In this document: positions 5,975 through 15,313 of the stretch, piece after piece
Layout of the letters: every line of letters begins with the position of its first letter
Numbering within the stretch: position 1 is the first letter of the stretch
Assembly: GCF_003334315.1 (NCBI RefSeq)
Contig: NZ_QOWR01000076.1
Strand: one strand, 5' to 3'
From: Escherichia coli
Lineage (GTDB): Bacteria; Pseudomonadota; Gammaproteobacteria; Enterobacterales; Enterobacteriaceae
Length of the DNA stretch: 15,313 nt
Program-made: the position numbers and the translations under genes
The notes under the pieces: model-generated
Told to the model about the DNA's origin: nothing
The model's input: only the letters and a program-made list of their open reading frames with translations
Database searches by the model: none

Positions 5975-8900
5975 TTATTTCCGTACCCGATGTCGGTGCA
6001 GCCACATCAGCTTATACGCCGCCGGGATAATAAACAGCGACAGCAAAGGTGCGGTGATCATGCCGCCAATCATCGGCGCGGCAATCCGGCTCATCACCTC
6101 TGAACCAGCCCCCGTTCCCCACAGAATCGGCAGCAGACCGGCGATAATCACCGCCACCGTCATCGCTTTCGGGCGCACGCGCAGGACCGCGCCGTGATAT
6201 AACGCCTCATCCAGCTTCTGCTCGCTGAATGTTTGTGGATTATTCAACGACGGCACGGCCTCTATGGCGTGACGTAAATACATCAGCATCACCACGCCAA
6301 ATTCGGCGGCGACCCCGGCGAGGGCGATAAAGCCAGTGCCCGTCGCCACGGAAAGATGAAAGCCCATCCACCACAGCAACCAGATGCCGCCCACCAGCGC
6401 AAACGGTACGCTGCTGATAATCAGCAACGCTTCGCCCACCCGACGGAACGCCAGATACAACAGCACGAAGATAATCATCAACGTCATCGGCACCATGAGT
6501 TTAAGCTTATGGTTGGCGCGCTCCAGTAGCTCGAACTGCCCGGAGAATGCCACGCTGGTGCCCGGTTTTAACTGCACTTTTTCAGCTATCGCTTTTTGCA
6601 AATCGTGAACCACCGACACCATGTCACGATCGCGGGCATCGATATAAATCCAGCTCGTCGGGCGCGCATTCTCGGTTTTCAGCATCGACGGTCCGGTAGA
6701 GACTTTAATGTCGGCCACGTCTGCCAGGGTGATTTGCTGCTTCATCGGCGTCAGGATCGGCAGCTGGCGCAGTGCCTGCGGACTATCGCGCCAGCTTTGC
6801 GGATAACGCAGATTAATTGGATAACGGGCAATCCCTTCCACCGTTTCGCCAACCATCGCCCCGCCCACCGCAGAAGTCACAAACAACTGCACATCCGCCA
6901 CCGTCATACCGTAACGTGCGGCTTTTTCACGGTTAATCTCAACGTTGATATAGCGCCCACCTTCCAGCCGCTCGGCAAGCGCAGAAGCTACGCCTGGCAC
7001 CGTTCGCGCTACTTCTTCAATTTGCTCAGCCATCGCGTCGATATCCGCCAGCACAGTGCCGGAAACTTTAATGCCGATGGGGCTTTTAATGCCGGTTGAG
7101 AGCATATCGATACGGTTACGAATTGGCGGCACCCACAGATTCGCCAGCCCCGGCAGCCGCACGGTGTTATCCAGTTCCTCAATGATTTTGTCCATCGTCA
7201 TGCCTGGCCGCCACTGCTCCTGCGGCTTAAGCTGGATGGTCGTTTCTACCATCTCCAGCGGAGCAGAATCGGTGGCGGTTTCCGCTTTCCCGGTTTTGCC
7301 AAATACCCGCGCCACTTCAGGTACGCTCATAATTAGCTTGTCGGTTTTTTGCAGCATACTCGCCGCCTCTGCTGCGGAAATCCCCGGCAGCGTCGATGGC
7401 ATATACAACAAGTCGCCTTCATTGATCTGCGGTAAAAATTCCCCGCCAACTTTATTGAGCGGCCAGAGAACCGTCAGCACCGAAAGCGCCGCCACCAGCA
7501 GCGTGGTTTTCGGCCAGTGCAGTACTTTCAGCAACAGCGGATGATAAACACGAATCAAAAAGCGATTGAGCGGGTTACTGCTTTCCGGCGGAATTTTGCC
7601 ACGGATCCAGTAGCCCATCAGGATCGGGATCACTACGATCGCCAGCAGCGCCGCACCCGCCATCGCATACGTTTTGGTGAACGCCAACGGGCCAAACAGA
7701 CGCCCTTCCTGCCCTTCCAGGGTGAAGATCGGGATAAACGACAACGTGATAATCAGCAGACTGATAAATAGCGCCGGCCCCACTTCAACAGACGCATCGG
7801 TGATCACCTGCCAGCGCGTTTTATTATCCAGCGTGGCGTCAGGATGCTGGTGCTGCCACTCTTCCAGCCGTTTATGCGCATTCTCGATCATGACGATAGC
7901 AGCATCGACCATCGCCCCGACGGCAATCGCAATGCCACCCAACGACATAATATTGGCATTCAGTCCCTGGAAGTGCATGACAATAAAAGCAATACACAAC
8001 CCCAGCGGCAACGAAATAATCGCCACCAGCGCCGAGCGCACATGCCAGAGAAACAGCGCACAGACTACCGCCACCACAATAAACTCTTCCAGCAACTTGC
8101 CGCTGAGGTTGTCGATGGCGCGGTCAATGAGCTGGCTGCGATCGTATGTTGTAACTATCTCCACGCCTTCCGGCAGACTACTTTTCAGCGTTTCCAGTTT
8201 GTCCTTCACGGCGGCGATCACTTCTCGGGCGTTTTTGCCGGATCGCAGGATCACCACCCCGCCCGCCACTTCGCCTTCGCTGTTTAGTTCGGCAATGCCC
8301 CGGCGCATCTCCGGGCCAATCTGGACCTTCGCAACATCGCGCAGATAAACGGGCACGCCATTTTCACTGGCTTTTAAAACGATGTGATTAAAGTCGTCGA
8401 GCGTTTGCAGATAGCCGCTGGCGCGCACCATATATTCCGCTTCCGCCAGTTCGATCGACGAACCGCCCGCTTCCTGGTTTGAAGCATCCAGCGCGCTTTT
8501 TACTTCGGCGAGACTGATGCCATACTGCGCCAGGCGCTGGGGATCGATAACCACCTGATACTCTTTCACCACACCACCCACCGACGCCACTTCCGCAACG
8601 TCAGGGATGGTTTTCAGCTCATATTTGAGAAACCAGTCCTGTAATGAGCGTAAATCGGCCAGATCGTGCTTACCGCTGCGATCCACCAGTGCATATTCAT
8701 AGATCCAGCCAACACCCGTGGCATCTGGCCCCAGCTCGGCGCTGACTCCCGCAGGCAGCTTACCCTGTACCTGGTTGAGGTACTCCAGCACCCGCGAACG
8801 CGCCCAGTACGGATCGGTGCCATCTTCGAAAATGACATACACATAAGAGTCGCCAAACTGTGAGAAACCGCGCACAGTCTTCGCGCCAGGCACCGACAAC

Positions 8901-9118
8901 ATGGTGGTGGTTAGCGGATAAGTCACCTGATTTTCAACGATTTGTGGTGCCTGACCGGGATAGCTGGTTTTAATAATAACCTGCACATCGGAGAGATCCG
9001 GCAGCGCATCCACTGGCGTATTAATGATGGTCCAGGTGCCCCAGATGCTCAGAAACAACGCGCCCATCAGCACCAAAAAACGGTTCGCCACCGAGCGACG
9101 AATAATCCATTCAATCAT
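5975..9118 (-). CDS. cusA: CusA, RND-family inner-membrane Cu(I)/Ag(I) efflux pump
   Basis: 1047-aa ORF with typical RND architecture (12 transmembrane helices, two large periplasmic loops). The translation ([50 protein letters not shown]...) matches my recollection of E. coli CusA at full length. On the minus strand it starts 11 nt after the cusB stop, preceded by GGGA. Confidence 0.95.
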
Positions 9119-9129
9119 TGGTTATTCCC

Positions 9130-10353
9130 TCAATGCGCATGGGTAGCACTTTCAGAGCGCATCCGCTCCAGTGCGCCAGAAATATTGGCTTCGGAATCAA
9201 TCAGGAACAGGCCGCTGGAAACCACCTTTTCACCTTCCGCCAGACCAGAGCGTAATGCGGTGACGCCTTGCGATGCCTGGAAAACAGCAACGCGTTTCGG
9301 TACAAAGCGCCCGTCGGCATCAACGGTAATCACCCGCTGTTCGCTGCCGGTATCAATCAGCGCTTGTGACGGAATGAGCAGCATCGGTTCGCTGGCGGTG
9401 TTGAGTTGCAACCAGGCGTTCATGCCCGGTTTTAGCGCCTCGTCGGCGTTGTCGACTTCCAGACGCAGCTGCAGCGTGCGGGTCGCGGCATCCACGCCAG
9501 GTAGCAGCGTCCATTTGCGGATGGTGAGTGTTTTATCCGGTCGCGCCGGAACGGTGAGGGTAAACTGCGAGGCATCTTTCACCAGCCAGGCGATAGACTC
9601 CGGGATCGCAGCAGTGACCCACACCGGGTCCATACCCTGAATTTTCGCTACCACGTTATCTTTGGCGATATTCATTCCCGCGCGCAGATCAAACGCGGTG
9701 ATCACGCCATCAATGGGCGCTTTGAGCGTAAAGCGAGTCTGGATTTTTTGCGTGGCGATCAGGCGGCGAATATCCGCCTCCGGCATTCCCGCCAGTCGCA
9801 GCCGCTCAAGAATGCCTTCAGTCTGGGTCGCCGTACCGCCGGTTTCGCGCAGCAGTAAATACTCACTCTGCGCTTCCACCCAGTCAGGAATGGTCAGGTC
9901 GAGAAGCGGTGTGCCCTTTTGTACTTTATCGCCCACGGTAAGCGGATACACCTTGTCGATAAACCCGGCAGCGCGAGCCTGCACAATGGCATACTGATAC
10001 TCGTTGTAACTGACATTCGCCGGGAAACTCTGGGCAAAAGTCAGCGGTCCGCGCGTGACGGTAGCCGTTTTCACCCCCAGATTCTGCGTCTGAGTCGGGT
10101 CAATGCGCACACCAGACGCAGAACTCTCTTCATCGGCATATTTCGGCACCAGATCCATATCCATAAACGGCGATTTACCTGGTTTATCGAACCGCGTATT
10201 GGGATACATTAGGTCGTACCAGAATAAGATTTTACGTTCTGCGGTCGACGTTTTTTCTGCAGGCGGTTCCGCCTTTGCAACCCAGGTAAAACCTGCCGCA
10301 GAAATAATACCGCCCGCGATCATGCTGCCGATAATAAGCGCGATTTTTTTCAT
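9130..10353 (-). CDS. cusB: CusB, periplasmic membrane-fusion adaptor of the Cus efflux system
   Basis: 407-aa ORF with an N-terminal signal/anchor (MKKIALIIGSMIAGGIISAAGF). The N-terminal metal-binding methionines are visible in LMYPNTRFDKPGKSPFMDMDL. Correct size and position between cusF and cusA. Confidence 0.95.
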   Translation of the reverse strand: MKKIALIIGSMIAGGIISAAGFTWVAKAEPPAEKTSTAERKILFWYDLMYPNTRFDKPGKSPFMDMDLVPKYADEESSASGVRIDPTQTQNLGVKTATVTRGPLTFAQSFPANVSYNEYQYAIVQARAAGFIDKVYPLTVGDKVQKGTPLLDLTIPDWVEAQSEYLLLRETGGTATQTEGILERLRLAGMPEADIRRLIATQKIQTRFTLKAPIDGVITAFDLRAGMNIAKDNVVAKIQGMDPVWVTAAIPESIAWLVKDASQFTLTVPARPDKTLTIRKWTLLPGVDAATRTLQLRLEVDNADEALKPGMNAWLQLNTASEPMLLIPSQALIDTGSEQRVITVDADGRFVPKRVAVFQASQGVTALRSGLAEGEKVVSSGLFLIDSEANISGALERMRSESATHAH

Positions 10354-10368
10354 CTCATTAAACCTGGG

Positions 10369-10701
10369 TTACTGGCTGACTTTAATATCCTGTAATAAAG
10401 AAAGGTTGCCCTGCTGGACAAAATTAAACGCCACTTTGTCGCCGGTTTTAATTTCACTCATTTTCGTCTGCGGGGTGATGGTAAAGCGCATGGTCATCTC
10501 CGGCCAGTTCACAGCAGCAATCGGATCGTGATGGATGGTGATTTTTTTGCTTTCCAGATCAATACCCTTTACCTCGCCAGTGGCACTAATAACCTGTGGT
10601 TGTGCTTCGCTCATGGTTTCATGATGATGTTCGTTAGCCTGGGCATTAAAGCCAATAACGGTAAACAGACTGAACATTGCGACTTGCAGTGCTTTTTTCA
10701 T
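10369..10701 (-). CDS. cusF: CusF, periplasmic Cu(I)/Ag(I) metallochaperone
   Basis: 110-aa ORF with a signal peptide (MKKALQVAMFSLFTVIGFNAQA). The His/Trp/Met-x-Met ligand cluster is visible in ITIHHDPIAAVNWPEMTMRF. Good AGGAGAG Shine-Dalgarno on the minus strand just upstream of the ATG. Confidence 0.95.
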   Translation of the reverse strand: MKKALQVAMFSLFTVIGFNAQANEHHHETMSEAQPQVISATGEVKGIDLESKKITIHHDPIAAVNWPEMTMRFTITPQTKMSEIKTGDKVAFNFVQQGNLSLLQDIKVSQ

Positions 10702-10719
10702 TTATTCTCTCCTGGAGTT

Positions 10720-10855
10720 AAAAGTCATACTCTAAATAATTCGAGTTGCAGGAAGGCGACAAGCGAGTGAATCCCCAGGAGCTTACATAAGTAAGTGACT
10801 GGGGTGAGCGAACGCAGACGCAGCACATGCAACTTGAAGTATGACGAGTATATTG
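10720..10855. repeat. ERIC (enterobacterial repetitive intergenic consensus) element in the cusC-cusF spacer
   Basis: The core contains exact matches to both classical ERIC primer sites: GTGAATCCCCAGGAGCTTACAT at 10767..10788 (reverse complement of ERIC1R) and AAGTAAGTGACTGGGGTGAGCG at 10789..10810 (ERIC2). Imperfect palindromic arms flank it (GTCATAC at 10724-10730, GTATGAC at 10839-10845). The outer boundaries are approximate. Confidence 0.85.
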
Positions 10856-10858
10856 CTG

Positions 10859-12232
10859 TCAACCGCCACCAAGTGCGGTATACAAAGAAATTTCGTTAAC
10901 CTGACGGGCATAATTCAGGTCGAGTAAAGTTTGTCGGGTTGCAAATAAAGAACGCTCGGCATCCAGCACTTCCAGATAACTTACTGCGCCGTGCTGATAT
11001 AATGCCCGCGCCCGTTGCAAAGTAATTTGCAGCGATGCCAGATAACGCTGCTGGGCGCTAATTTGATCGTTCAGGCTTTGACGTAATGCCAGCGCATCTG
11101 CCACTTCTTTAAAGGCGTTCTGGATTTTCTGTTCATAATTCACCACCGACTGCTGCTGGCGAATTTCGGCGATATCCAGATTGGCCTGGTTGCGTCCGGC
11201 ATTAAAAATGGGGATCTCAATTTTGGGTATAAAATTCCACATCCCGCTGCTGGCGTTAAATAATGACGATAGATCGCTACTGGCGGTCGATATTCCGCTG
11301 GTCAGGCTTATAGACGGAAAAAATGCCGCGCGTGCAGCGCCAATATTGGCATTAGCCGCCATTAACGCGTGTTCAGCTTCCATAATATCCGGGCGCTGCA
11401 ATAAGATTTGCGACGACAATCCCGCCGGTAATTTAACGCTTTGCAGGCTGTCGCTGTTTACTGTCTGCGCTTGCGGCAGCTTGCCGTAGCTTCCCAATAA
11501 CAGTTGCAATGCATTATTCGCCTGCGCCAGTTCCCCCTGACGTTTAGCGATGTCGCTGCGGGTACTTTCAATCACCCCGCGAGCCTGTTCCAGCGCCAGA
11601 ACATTACTGCTACCTGTCAACAGTTGTTTTTCGACAAACGCATATGACTGCTGATAATTACGCAGCGTTTCTTCGGCTATTTGCAATTGCGCATACGCTA
11701 GCTGCTGATTGAAATAACTTTGCGCGACATTAGAAACCAGCAAAATATGCACCGCGCGCTGGGCTTCCTCAGTGGCTAAATAATTTTGGCGCTCGGCTTC
11801 GCTCATGTTCTTTAAGCGACCGAAAAAATCGAGGTCAAAGCTGGCGTTAAGGCCGGTCGAAAACTCCCGTGTCGTGGCGGTATTCCCTTTAAGATTACCG
11901 CTCCAGCTGCCGCTGCCCTCGCCATTGAGCTGTGGGTAGCGGTCGGCATCGGTCAGACGATATTGCGCCCGTGCCTCCTGCACTTTCAGCGTCGCCATGC
12001 GCAAATCCCGATTATTCACCAGCGCCTCGCTAATCAGCGTCTTCACCTGATTATCAACAAAAAAGGTGCGCCAGCCCGCGTTCTGATAGTTATCTGCTGC
12101 GTTAACCAGGCCGTTCTGGCTGAGTGAGAACTGCTGCGGCACGGGCATTGCCGGACGCTGATAATCCGGTGCCAGTGAACAACCGGTTAGCGCAAGGGCC
12201 ACACAAAATGGCAGAAGTTTACAAGGAGACAT
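10859..12232 (-). CDS. cusC: CusC, outer-membrane channel lipoprotein of the Cus efflux system (TolC-like)
   Basis: 457-aa ORF with a lipoprotein signal and lipobox (MSPCKLLPFCVALALTGCSLAP). Outer-membrane-factor family sequence, divergent from cusR and first gene of the cusCFBA operon. Confidence 0.95.
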   Translation of the reverse strand: MSPCKLLPFCVALALTGCSLAPDYQRPAMPVPQQFSLSQNGLVNAADNYQNAGWRTFFVDNQVKTLISEALVNNRDLRMATLKVQEARAQYRLTDADRYPQLNGEGSGSWSGNLKGNTATTREFSTGLNASFDLDFFGRLKNMSEAERQNYLATEEAQRAVHILLVSNVAQSYFNQQLAYAQLQIAEETLRNYQQSYAFVEKQLLTGSSNVLALEQARGVIESTRSDIAKRQGELAQANNALQLLLGSYGKLPQAQTVNSDSLQSVKLPAGLSSQILLQRPDIMEAEHALMAANANIGAARAAFFPSISLTSGISTASSDLSSLFNASSGMWNFIPKIEIPIFNAGRNQANLDIAEIRQQQSVVNYEQKIQNAFKEVADALALRQSLNDQISAQQRYLASLQITLQRARALYQHGAVSYLEVLDAERSLFATRQTLLDLNYARQVNEISLYTALGGG

Positions 12233-12301
12233 AGGCTCATAATTTCTGGTGATTTTATACCGCCAACTTTACTCGCCAGGCTCTGATTTTCCGGTGACAG
12301 G

Positions 12302-12323
12302 AAAATGACAAAATTGTCATTTT
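12302..12323. promoter_or_regulatory. CusR box (response-regulator binding palindrome) in the cusC/cusRS divergent control region
   Basis: AAAATGACAA-AA-TTGTCATTTT: two perfect 10-bp inverted arms around a 2-bp spacer, which is the published CusR-box consensus AAAATGACAANNTTGTCATTTT. It lies between a candidate cusC -10 (TATAAA on the minus strand, plus coordinates 12259..12254) and the candidate cusR promoter. Confidence 0.85.
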
Positions 12324-12335
12324 GCCAATAAGCGA

Positions 12336-12363
12336 TTGCCATCTGATCCCGCTACTCTAGAAT
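12336..12363 (+). promoter_or_regulatory. Candidate sigma70 promoter for cusRS
   Basis: -35 TTGCCA (12336-12341), 16-bp spacer, -10 TAGAAT (12358-12363), about 25 nt upstream of the cusR ATG. Predicted by eye only. Confidence 0.4.
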
Positions 12364-12388
12364 TGCCCGGGCAACATGCGGAGGAAAT

Positions 12389-13072
12389 ATGAAACTGTTG
12401 ATTGTCGAAGATGAAAAGAAAACCGGAGAATACTTGACCAAAGGGTTAACCGAAGCCGGTTTTGTGGTCGATTTGGCCGACAACGGGCTGAATGGCTACC
12501 ATCTGGCGATGACCGGTGATTATGATCTGATAATCCTCGATATTATGCTGCCGGACGTGAACGGCTGGGATATCGTGCGCATGTTACGCTCCGCCAATAA
12601 AGGGATGCCGATTCTGTTGCTTACCGCGCTTGGCACCATTGAACATCGCGTCAAGGGGCTGGAGTTGGGGGCAGATGACTACCTGGTGAAGCCATTCGCT
12701 TTTGCTGAACTGCTGGCGCGGGTGCGCACATTACTGCGGCGCGGGGCGGCGGTGATTATCGAAAGTCAGTTTCAGGTTGCCGATTTGATGGTCGATCTCG
12801 TCAGCCGCAAAGTCACCCGCAGCGGCACGCGCATCACTTTGACCAGTAAAGAGTTTACTCTGCTGGAGTTCTTCCTTCGCCATCAGGGCGAAGTGCTGCC
12901 CCGCTCGCTTATCGCCTCGCAGGTATGGGACATGAATTTTGACAGCGATACCAATGCTATTGATGTGGCGGTGAAGCGGCTGCGCGGCAAAATCGACAAC
13001 GACTTTGAGCCGAAGCTAATTCAGACCGTGCGCGGCGTGGGTTACATGCTTGAGGTGCCGGATGGTCAGTAA
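12389..13072 (+). CDS. cusR: CusR, OmpR-family response regulator of the CusS/CusR two-component system
   Basis: 227-aa ORF, GGAGG at 12380-12384. Receiver domain with the conserved phospho-acceptor context ([17 protein letters not shown]) and a C-terminal winged-helix domain ([21 protein letters not shown]...). Matches my recollection of E. coli CusR. Confidence 0.95.
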
Positions 13073-14510
13073 GCCATTTCAGCGCCCGTTTTCGCTGGCA
13101 ACCCGCCTGACCTTTTTTATCAGCCTGGCCACCATCGCGGCGTTTTTCGCCTTTGCATGGATCATGATCCACTCAGTAAAAGTTCATTTTGCCGAGCAGG
13201 ATATTAATGATTTAAAAGAGATTAGCGCCACCCTTGAACGGGTACTAAATCACCCTGACGAAACGCAAGCCCGACGCTTAATGACGCTGGAAGATATCGT
13301 CAGTGGTTATTCCAATGTGTTGATTTCCCTGGCAGATAGTCAGGGTAAAACGGTGTATCACTCCCCCGGTGCGCCGGATATCCGCGAGTTTACGCGTGAC
13401 GCCATACCCGATAAAGACGCTCAGGGTGGCGAGGTGTATCTCCTTTCCGGCCCGACGATGATGATGCCAGGCCACGGTCACGGGCATATGGAACACAGCA
13501 ACTGGCGGATGATTAACTTGCCGGTTGGCCCGTTGGTGGACGGCAAACCGATTTATACGCTCTACATCGCGCTTTCGATCGATTTTCATCTTCATTACAT
13601 AAATGATTTGATGAATAAACTTATTATGACCGCATCGGTAATCAGCATCCTGATCGTCTTTATCGTACTGTTGGCGGTACATAAAGGTCACGCGCCGATC
13701 CGCAGCGTCAGCCGTCAAATCCAGAATATTACCTCGAAAGATCTCGACGTTCGCCTCGACCCGCAGACCGTGCCGATTGAGCTGGAACAGCTGGTACTGT
13801 CGTTCAACCATATGATCGAGCGTATTGAGGATGTCTTTACCCGCCAGTCCAATTTCTCAGCGGATATCGCTCACGAAATTCGCACGCCGATTACCAATCT
13901 CATCACGCAAACGGAAATCGCCCTCAGCCAGTCTCGCAGCCAGAAGGAGCTGGAAGATGTGCTCTACTCTAATCTCGAAGAGCTGACGCGAATGGCGAAA
14001 ATGGTCAGCGATATGCTGTTTCTCGCTCAGGCCGATAACAACCAGCTAATCCCCGAAAAGAAAATGCTCAACCTGGCGGATGAAGTCGGCAAAGTGTTCG
14101 ATTTTTTCGAGGCGTTAGCGGAAGATCGCGGCGTGGAGTTGCGATTTGTTGGCGACAAATGTCAGGTTGCGGGCGATCCGCTGATGCTGCGTCGGGCGTT
14201 AAGCAACCTGCTTTCTAATGCCCTGCGTTATACGCCACCCAGTGAGGCTATTGTAGTGCGCTGCCAGACGGTCAATCATCAGGTGCAAGTTTCCGTCGAA
14301 AACCCCGGTACGCCCATTGCGCCCGAGCACTTACCGCGATTGTTTGACCGTTTCTATCGCGTTGACCCTTCCCGCCAGCGAAAAGGCGAAGGTAGCGGCA
14401 TTGGGCTGGCGATAGTGAAATCGATTGTTGTCGCGCATAAAGGCACGGTTGCAGTAACGTCAGATGCGCGGGGGACAAGGTTTGTGATTATGCTGCCAGA
14501 GAGAGAGTGA
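13062..14510 (+). CDS. cusS: CusS, copper/silver-sensing histidine kinase
   Basis: ATG at 13062 preceded by GAGG at 13052-13055, giving a 480-aa product ([41 protein letters not shown]...). Two transmembrane helices flank a periplasmic sensor domain, followed by HAMP, an H-box ([15 protein letters not shown]) and an ATPase domain ([13 protein letters not shown]). The start overlaps the cusR stop by 11 nt. The track's TTG at 13050 was rejected. Confidence 0.95.
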
Positions 14511-15246
14511 TTATTAAGTTCAAATTCAGGGCGTGGTGCATCACCTCCTGGTATTGTTGATCAACAAATTAGAGAAAAACTTATTAAACATATGAAATAT
14601 CGAAGGCTTTTATTTTTCAAAGTTTCACGAGATGTTTGTATATGAAACTTAGTTAAATCTGTGTTTCTTCCAATTGTAGATCACAATGCCCTTTCTAAAT
14701 TTTCATCGTTATAAACAAGCCATCTATCATATAAAGCAATGAATAATTTAATCGCGATTAATCATCATTAATTGTTATATTATTCACTCAATCTATTTAT
14801 CAAGTGAATTTGATAAATTCCTAATTTAAAATATCCACTATTGAGCCAGTATTTAACAACGTTAAGATGTGCAATGTGCAGATCATGTTATCAGGGTGGA
14901 GCGGTAGCATATATTTCTTATGCAATCATTCATTTTAATAATGTTAATTGGATTATTTATTGCTGTGAATAAAAATATATTATGAATATTGGTTTAACTT
15001 TACGTTTTTGTTACTCGTTGTGATATGCGTACCTGTCCTGAATAACGCCAAGAAACAAGAGGTTGAGCTTGTGATTATTTTTTTGACTGAACAGACACCC
15101 GTTTCTGTAAAGTAATATTTAAACAAAATTCTCACATAACCATAGCATTTTCTGTTCCTTCCCTAATAACGTCTGAAGTCGTCCCGCTTATCACATTATC
15201 CGCAGTTGTACGGTACGGATCATTATTCATTTTACTGGAGGTTGCT
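14511..15246. other. AT-rich non-coding spacer between cusS and the VgrG-like gene; likely promoter / xenogeneic-silencing region
   Basis: No ORF of 60 aa or more on either strand in the track. Two 60-nt lines I counted by hand (14761-14820 and 14941-15000) are each about 20% G+C, against roughly 50% in the flanking genes. Contains interleaved short palindromes at 14782-14820. Confidence 0.6.
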
Positions 15247-15313
15247 ATGTCAACCGGATTACGTTTCACACTGGAAGTGGACGGCCTGCCGCCGGATGCT
15301 TTTGCGGTGGTTT
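15247..15313 (+). CDS. vgrG: 5' end (22 codons) of a VgrG-like type VI secretion spike protein gene, truncated by the window edge
   Basis: ATG at 15247 preceded by GGAGG at 15237-15241 with a 5-nt spacer. The translation MSTGLRFTLEVDGLPPDAFAVV fits the N-terminal pattern of VgrG/gp27-like proteins as I recall it (compare V. cholerae VgrG1, which I recall as MATLAYSIEVEGLEDETLVV...). Only 22 residues are visible, so the family call is provisional. Confidence 0.5.
   Translation, partial: MSTGLRFTLEVDGLPPDAFAVV

Follow-up and report, generated by a model that had tools for sequence, protein, structure and literature searches.

Genes and features of the cus locus

The window analysed here is a stretch of 15,313 nt of chromosomal DNA from Escherichia coli (contig NZ_QOWR01000076.1). 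It carries cusR and cusS, the genes of a response regulator and its sensor histidine kinase, which follow each other on the plus strand and share 11 nt. The features of the cusRS region are, in window positions:

12302..12323, cusC-cusR intergenic region: perfect palindrome AAAATGACAA-AA-TTGTCATTTT, read from the sequence
12336..12363, plus strand: promoter-like site upstream of cusR, with TTGCCA and TAGAAT separated by a spacer of 16 nt (10 of 12 positions matched in a consensus scan)
12389..13072, plus strand: cusR coding sequence, 227 aa, ATG start, OmpR-family copper/silver response regulator (ORF list, translation, RefSeq)
13050-13052, plus strand: TTG from which the ORF lister begins cusS, a decoy and not the true start of the gene
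13052..13057, plus strand: Shine-Dalgarno sequence GAGGTG of cusS, within the cusR codons Leu-Glu-Val (sequence, conservation)
13062..13072, plus strand: dual-coding overlap of cusR and cusS, ATGGTCAGTAA, 11 nt, read from the sequence
13062..14510, plus strand: coding sequence of cusS, a sensor histidine kinase of 482 aa, with ATG 13062-13064 as start codon (translation, NCBIfam, RefSeq)
13070-13072, plus strand: stop codon TAA of cusR, read from the sequence

CusR matched the NCBIfam equivalog NF007346 with 507.9 bits (cut-off 420) over residues 1-227 of 227. CusS, when translated from ATG 13062, reached 986.1 bits (cut-off 423) against the Cu(+)/Ag(+) sensor kinase model NF007345, its residues 1-481 being aligned to profile positions 1-481 of 482, and 522.8 bits (cut-off 292.55) against TIGR01386. 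The CusS sensor domain of PDB 5KU5 corresponds to residues 39-187 in the present numbering. On the minus strand, four ORFs of 457, 110, 407 and 1047 aa at 5975-12232 represent cusCFBA, which is divergent from cusRS; cusC is annotated beside cusR. The palindrome at 12302-12323 lies between the two, and we take it to be the CusR box of Yamamoto and Ishihama 2005. A CusR box in the cusC-cusR intergenic region drives both divergent operons, according to PMC10920338 (citing Yamamoto and Ishihama 2005). The CusR equivalog, the end-to-end match of the CusS model and a divergent cusCFBA operon with an intergenic palindrome together identify the locus as the CusRS copper/silver system.

The region 12250-14600 is 100% identical to E. 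coli strain 2018-11-3CC (NZ_AP021895.1), and similar DNA is found in 5337 of 5426 complete E. coli genomes. RefSeq places the boundaries of cusR and cusS at matching positions in this identical strain as well as in one of K-12 type (RefSeq locus coordinates: cusR 1640-2323, cusS from 2313). In E. coli K-12 itself (b0571/b0570) the junction is identical, including the overlap of 11 nt, and CusR is the same protein, WP_000770953.1.

Positions 1-156 on the minus strand, at the left end of the window, match the full model of the Rfam sok antitoxin RNA (RF01794, 63.7 bits, gathering score 59), which indicates a hok/sok-type toxin-antitoxin locus beside a 372-aa ORF at 462-1580.

Differences from K-12 in CusS and downstream of it

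CusS has 482 aa in the window and ends in FVIMLPERE, whereas the K-12 protein has 480 aa and ends in FVITLPA. Similarity to K-12-type strains stops within roughly the last five codons of the cusS gene (window 14487-15313). On the 3’ side of the gene, 736 nt without an annotated gene follow, with the GC content down to 26-31% in the part from about 14550 to 15150; after this stretch comes the type VI secretion gene vgrG (ATG 15247). In K-12 the gene downstream of cusS is instead a glycosyltransferase gene (nfrB; labelled ‘nrfB’ in the RefSeq record). Downstream sequence of the type seen in the window is present in about 2369 of the 5426 complete E. coli genomes. Since the similarity to K-12 ends here and the downstream DNA is different, an island junction appears to lie within the 3’ end of cusS.

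A second group of differences was noticed in the ATP-binding domain, where residues 393-411 (14238-14294) differ from K-12 at six positions within 19 residues (PSEA vs TGET, N405D, Q407L, S411I). Elsewhere the protein is identical to K-12 CusS, save for the divergent tail and a single substitution located four residues from the C-terminus. The cluster looks like a small recombination patch.

The cusR/cusS overlap and the start codon of cusS

Within the overlap, cusR is read as (G)AT GGT CAG TAA, encoding Asp-Gly-Gln-stop, and cusS, in a frame shifted by one base, as ATG GTC AGT AA(G), encoding Met-Val-Ser-Lys. The cusS AUG is thereby formed from the Asp codon (GAT) of the cusR tail together with the first base of the Gly codon, and it lies 8 nt upstream of the TAA at 13070-13072 on the same strand. 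An 11-nt overlap at 13062-13072, with cusS starting at the ATG inside the end of cusR, had already been proposed in the first-pass annotation. The overlap is confirmed by the sequence, the ORF list and RefSeq; the start is borne out by the NCBIfam alignment, by RefSeq and by conservation in orthologues and in a paralogue. We regard the start at 13062 and the 11-nt overlap as next to certain.

Two other start codons had to be weighed. The ORF list gives cusS as 13050..14510 on the plus strand, a 486-aa protein with a TTG start in which ATG 13062 is only the fifth codon; the overlap with cusR would then be 23 nt. The cusS frame is open upstream to 13020. Its in-frame stop lies at 13017-13019, and from there to the conserved N-terminus of the kinase the only start-type codons are TTG 13050 and ATG 13062. 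TTG 13050 is the first of these after the stop, which is what the ORF lister reports by rule (the first ATG, GTG or TTG after a stop). Against its use stands the JJ1887 haplotype of E. coli. Here the Leu codon of cusR reads CTA and not CTT, a synonymous change in cusR that turns TTG 13050 into an in-frame TAG, four codons upstream of the ATG. The 70-nt haplotype of JJ1887 is matched at 99% or more by at least 842 E. coli records. The corresponding codon in silS is TGG. By reading the sequence we found no ribosome-binding match upstream of TTG 13050 that is comparable to GAGGTG, and both the NCBIfam profile and RefSeq begin at the ATG. As the profile start, silRS, Citrobacter and the TAG of JJ1887 all favour ATG 13062, we consider the TTG an artefact of the ORF lister; as a start of cusS it is effectively refuted, with a vanishingly small chance of being correct. 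The first-pass annotation had seen in the overlap the explanation for the upstream non-canonical start. It was right insofar as the TTG is an artefact of ORF listing, but the overlap alone does not account for the TTG: the lister follows its first-start-after-stop rule, and the cusS frame happens to be open.

The second candidate is a downstream in-frame ATG (Met35, ~13164), with which cusR and cusS would not overlap at all. Its sole support is that this ATG exists. A protein starting there would lack the first membrane-spanning segment as well as the N-terminal motif RPFSLATRL; SilS and the Citrobacter orthologues have kept both from residue 1 on, the SLxxRL motif is conserved throughout the family and the curated profile matches CusS from residue 1. 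Conservation thus effectively refutes Met35 as the start, and we attach practically no probability to it.

On the minus strand, a 71-aa ORF with a GTG start (12957-13172) runs antisense over the cusR/cusS junction. It is contained in the ORF list and absent from the RefSeq annotation, and is probably not a gene.

The ribosome-binding site of cusS

The GAGG at 13052-13055 to which the first-pass annotation pointed is indeed embedded in the cusR coding sequence, and it extends to GAGGTG. The spacer between GAGGTG and ATG 13062 is 4 nt long (CCGG). All six contiguous bases are complementary to CACCUC of the 16S rRNA 3’ tail. Scanning for ribosome-binding sites upstream of ATG 13062 returned only 5-mer matches and this 6-mer. 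A 6-nt match was found in only 6 of 93 loci of the family (see the survey below), and the cusS site is stronger than that of 87 of the 93. GAGGT is kept in Citrobacter and in silRS.

Leu-Glu in the regulator tail is widely conserved in the regulator family (GY[VM]LE), so that part of the ribosome-binding match is a by-product of the protein sequence. We also compared the window with shuffled versions of it: a 4-mer ribosome-binding match combined with an ATG occurs at 155 sites vs 131 in shuffles, a 6-mer match with an ATG at 13 sites vs 6.5. The pairing of GAGG and ATG taken alone had no significance in the window relative to the shuffles, and the case is therefore built on position and conservation. 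Judged from the sequence, what is above chance is the location of the site at the beginning of a kinase ORF of 482 codons, together with its conservation in orthologues and in the paralogue.

Conservation of the junction in Citrobacter and silRS

The sequence of the 11-nt overlap is identical in the window and in three aligned chromosomal E. coli variants. In Citrobacter werkmanii it contains one change, which is synonymous in cusR, and two Citrobacter species have kept the ATG, the GAGGT and the 11-nt overlap.

The copper/silver paralogue silRS of IncHI2-type plasmids shows a closely related layout. As in cusRS, the ATG of the kinase arises at the regulator's Asp codon (tail ...EVPD), the ribosome-binding site (GGAGGT) is located at the homologous position in Leu-Glu-Val, and the N-terminus of the kinase is homologous from residue 1 (MHSKPSRRPFSLALRL). 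DNA identity of silS is 71%. Unlike in cusRS, the overlap measures 8 nt, as silR stops one codon earlier: the CAG (Gln) of cusR corresponds to TAG in silR, and the TAA of cusR to CAA. The length of the overlap has thus changed between 8 and 11 nt by substitutions at the stop codon, without insertion or deletion, and the Ser-Lys codons of the kinase are preserved across these substitutions.

One further copy of cusRS was found in E. coli GN06156, on a linear ‘plasmid’ record of 14.6 kb (NZ_CP095532.1). It has ~93% identity at the junction, a gap within the 11-nt overlap, and multiple frameshifts and internal stops, and its genes are annotated as pseudogenes. The record may be a low-quality contig and not a real plasmid copy.

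Survey of heavy-metal regulator-kinase junctions

For a survey of the family, one genome per species was scanned for the regulator motif VWDMNFD. This motif is located ~140 nt upstream of the junction, so that the survey is unbiased as to the junction itself. The adjacent kinase was located by HMM and the nearest plausible start was assigned by a heuristic. Seven of 100 loci with an adjacent kinase gave no start under the heuristic and were excluded, leaving 93 chromosomal loci, all from other genomes, which were distributed as follows:

Overlap of at least 1 nt, all lengths: 72 of 93 loci (77%)
Overlap of 4 nt: 35 of 93 loci
Overlap of 1 nt: 17 of 93 loci
Overlap of 11 nt: 5 of 93 loci
Overlaps of 8, 10 and 28 nt: 3 loci each
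Gap of 0-15 nt: 16 of 93 loci
Larger gap: 5 of 93 loci

Overlap is not obligatory, since 21 of the 93 loci have none, with gaps of up to 137 nt; 88 loci are within 15 nt. The 11-nt group consists of two Citrobacter loci and one each from Burkholderiales, Porticoccus and Pseudoalteromonas. Pairs such as copRS, czcRS and their relatives (TIGR01387/TIGR01386) share with cusRS the gene order and the tendency to overlap, but their overlaps are mostly of 4 nt (ATGA/GTGA) or 1 nt. Annotated plasmid copies in Ralstonia, Pseudomonas and Enterobacter have 4-nt overlaps, and homologous pairs of Pseudomonas have been described as overlapping genes (PMC11195947). Survey counts, annotated plasmid copies and literature thus agree that overlap is the norm in this family. 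In calling the junction a classic arrangement for a regulator-kinase pair, the first-pass annotation was correct about the overlap as such; the 11-nt form, by contrast, belongs to a minority.

The apparent 28-nt overlaps, unusually long and with starts assigned by the heuristic, come from three Pseudomonas spp. loci (L015, L046, L093). Their regulator has an extended tail, YVCEVRPCxPDAxxP followed by the stop, and the ATG of the kinase lies inside it.

A proposed model for translational coupling of cusR and cusS

Coordinates, reading frames, choice of the start codon and conservation of the layout are matters of observation, and translational coupling of cusRS is a plausible reading of this geometry. 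In the model that we propose, cusR and cusS would form a two-gene operon on the plus strand, with translation of cusS starting at AUG 13062 and GAGGUG (13052-13057), encoded by Leu-Glu-Val of cusR, as its ribosome-binding site. Ribosomes finishing cusR would cross the start region of cusS and terminate at the UAA 8 nt past the cusS AUG. In passing they would open up the base pairing that is otherwise predicted for this start region. A new 30S subunit could then bind the exposed site, or the terminating ribosome could re-initiate a few bases back. Synthesis of CusS would in this way be tied to that of CusR at a fixed and probably low proportion, not at 1:1. We consider this explanation as a whole, i.e. 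one operon, initiation at AUG 13062 and coupling of cusS translation to that of cusR, to be likely.

The scan for promoters is consistent, as weak evidence, with a single cusRS transcript. The site at 12336..12363 is the only plus-strand promoter-like site between 12200 and 14800, and consensus scanning showed no plus-strand promoter-like site inside cusR and no terminator-like site, again weak evidence.

We then compared the accessibility of translation starts. The predicted energy needed to open the cusS start (-20 to +13; 13042-13074) is 18.1 kcal/mol, compared with 4.4-10.8 kcal/mol for the other starts in the window (cusR, cusC, cusF, cusB, cusA and the ORF at 462), a comparison made with a thermodynamic model and only these six reference starts. 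Random internal positions gave 13.7 +/- 4.1 kcal/mol. The RNA around the junction (13012-13112) does not fold more stably than its shuffles (z = 0.18), which argues against a dedicated hairpin masking the cusS start. A specific structural element of this kind was therefore rejected, and only the generic accessibility result was kept.

An experimental parallel comes from ompR-envZ (ompB operon), which serves as the model for OmpR-family regulator-kinase pairs. As in cusRS the regulator comes first and the start of the kinase lies inside the end of the regulator gene. PMC3843671 describes ompR and envZ as co-transcribed and their coupling as shown experimentally: translation of envZ falls ten-fold or more when ompR stops early (Liljestrom 1988, in PMC3843671). 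In contrast to cusRS, the overlap is of 4 nt (ATGA), which places the terminating ribosome directly on the start codon. In cusRS the stop lies 8 nt beyond the AUG, so that a re-initiating ribosome would have to shift back a short distance. By analogy to ompR-envZ, translation of cusS probably depends on translation of cusR, a point on which we are slightly less confident than on the explanation as a whole.

The overlap might also reflect nothing but genome compaction, with ribosomes binding the strong site of cusS itself whether or not cusR is translated. GAGGTG, a 6-nt match with a 4-nt spacer, could support such independent initiation, the structure at the junction does not go beyond that of shuffled controls, and 21 of the 93 relatives do without an overlap. 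Set against this are the start region of cusS, which is predicted to be largely base-paired and costs far more to open than the other starts in the window, the presence of an overlap in 77% of the relatives with 88 of 93 within 15 nt, and the experimentally shown dependence of a kinase on translation of its regulator in ompR-envZ, as related in the source cited above. We therefore judge compaction without coupling to be rather unlikely, though it keeps an appreciable share of the probability, and retain translational coupling as the preferred reading.

A literature search on cusRS and translational coupling found no paper, and one on the start codons and overlap of cusR and cusS found no direct statement on the E. 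coli junction. A paper on CsrA and evgA was set aside as it deals with coupling to a leader peptide, not with regulator-kinase coupling.

Proportions of CusR and CusS

The first-pass annotation had spoken of stoichiometric coupling. If equimolar amounts are meant, this is misleading, because regulators are normally far more numerous than their kinases. EnvZ reportedly (Cai and Inouye 2002) numbers roughly 100 copies per cell. For OmpR about 3500 copies per cell have been given (PMC5175337), so the ompR-envZ pair is not equimolar in spite of its 4-nt overlap. More generally, response regulators typically exceed their cognate kinases in abundance (PMC10368727, citing Li et al. 2014 and others). 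Estimates for CusR range from about 170 to more than 500 copies per cell (PMC9725139), and a chromosomal CusS-YFP fusion gave minimal fluorescence even with 100 uM copper (PMC11522558). Coupling would accordingly link the rates of CusR and CusS synthesis in a fixed but skewed proportion, not 1:1. A gene overlap does not imply equal amounts of both proteins, and caution is needed wherever one is read in that way.

With its AUG 8 nt before the stop and a terminating ribosome that has to move back, the overlap might by its geometry act as a built-in attenuator that sets a low CusS:CusR ratio, and the stop-codon substitutions behind the 8-nt (silRS) and 11-nt (cusRS) forms might tune this ratio between the paralogues. 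We mention this as a speculation of low probability.

Meaning for annotation and for the family

The cusRS junction is already annotated in E. coli and its layout is routine for regulator-sensor pairs of OmpR-family two-component systems, from whose pattern it does not deviate, which makes the overlap a correct but ordinary finding, of little significance beyond correct annotation. Mildly new are the TAG polymorphism that excludes the TTG start, the switch between 8 and 11 nt by stop-codon substitution, and the survey numbers. In practice, the true N-terminus of CusS (MVSKPF...) matters for cusS expression constructs and for copper/silver biosensors. A cusS gene cloned from its ATG loses the native ribosome-binding site, which is located inside cusR; conversely, a deletion of cusR up to its stop codon takes out the start of cusS. 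For the family, the figure that can be reused is that roughly three in four heavy-metal regulator-kinase pairs have an overlap, which in most of them measures 4 or 1 nt.
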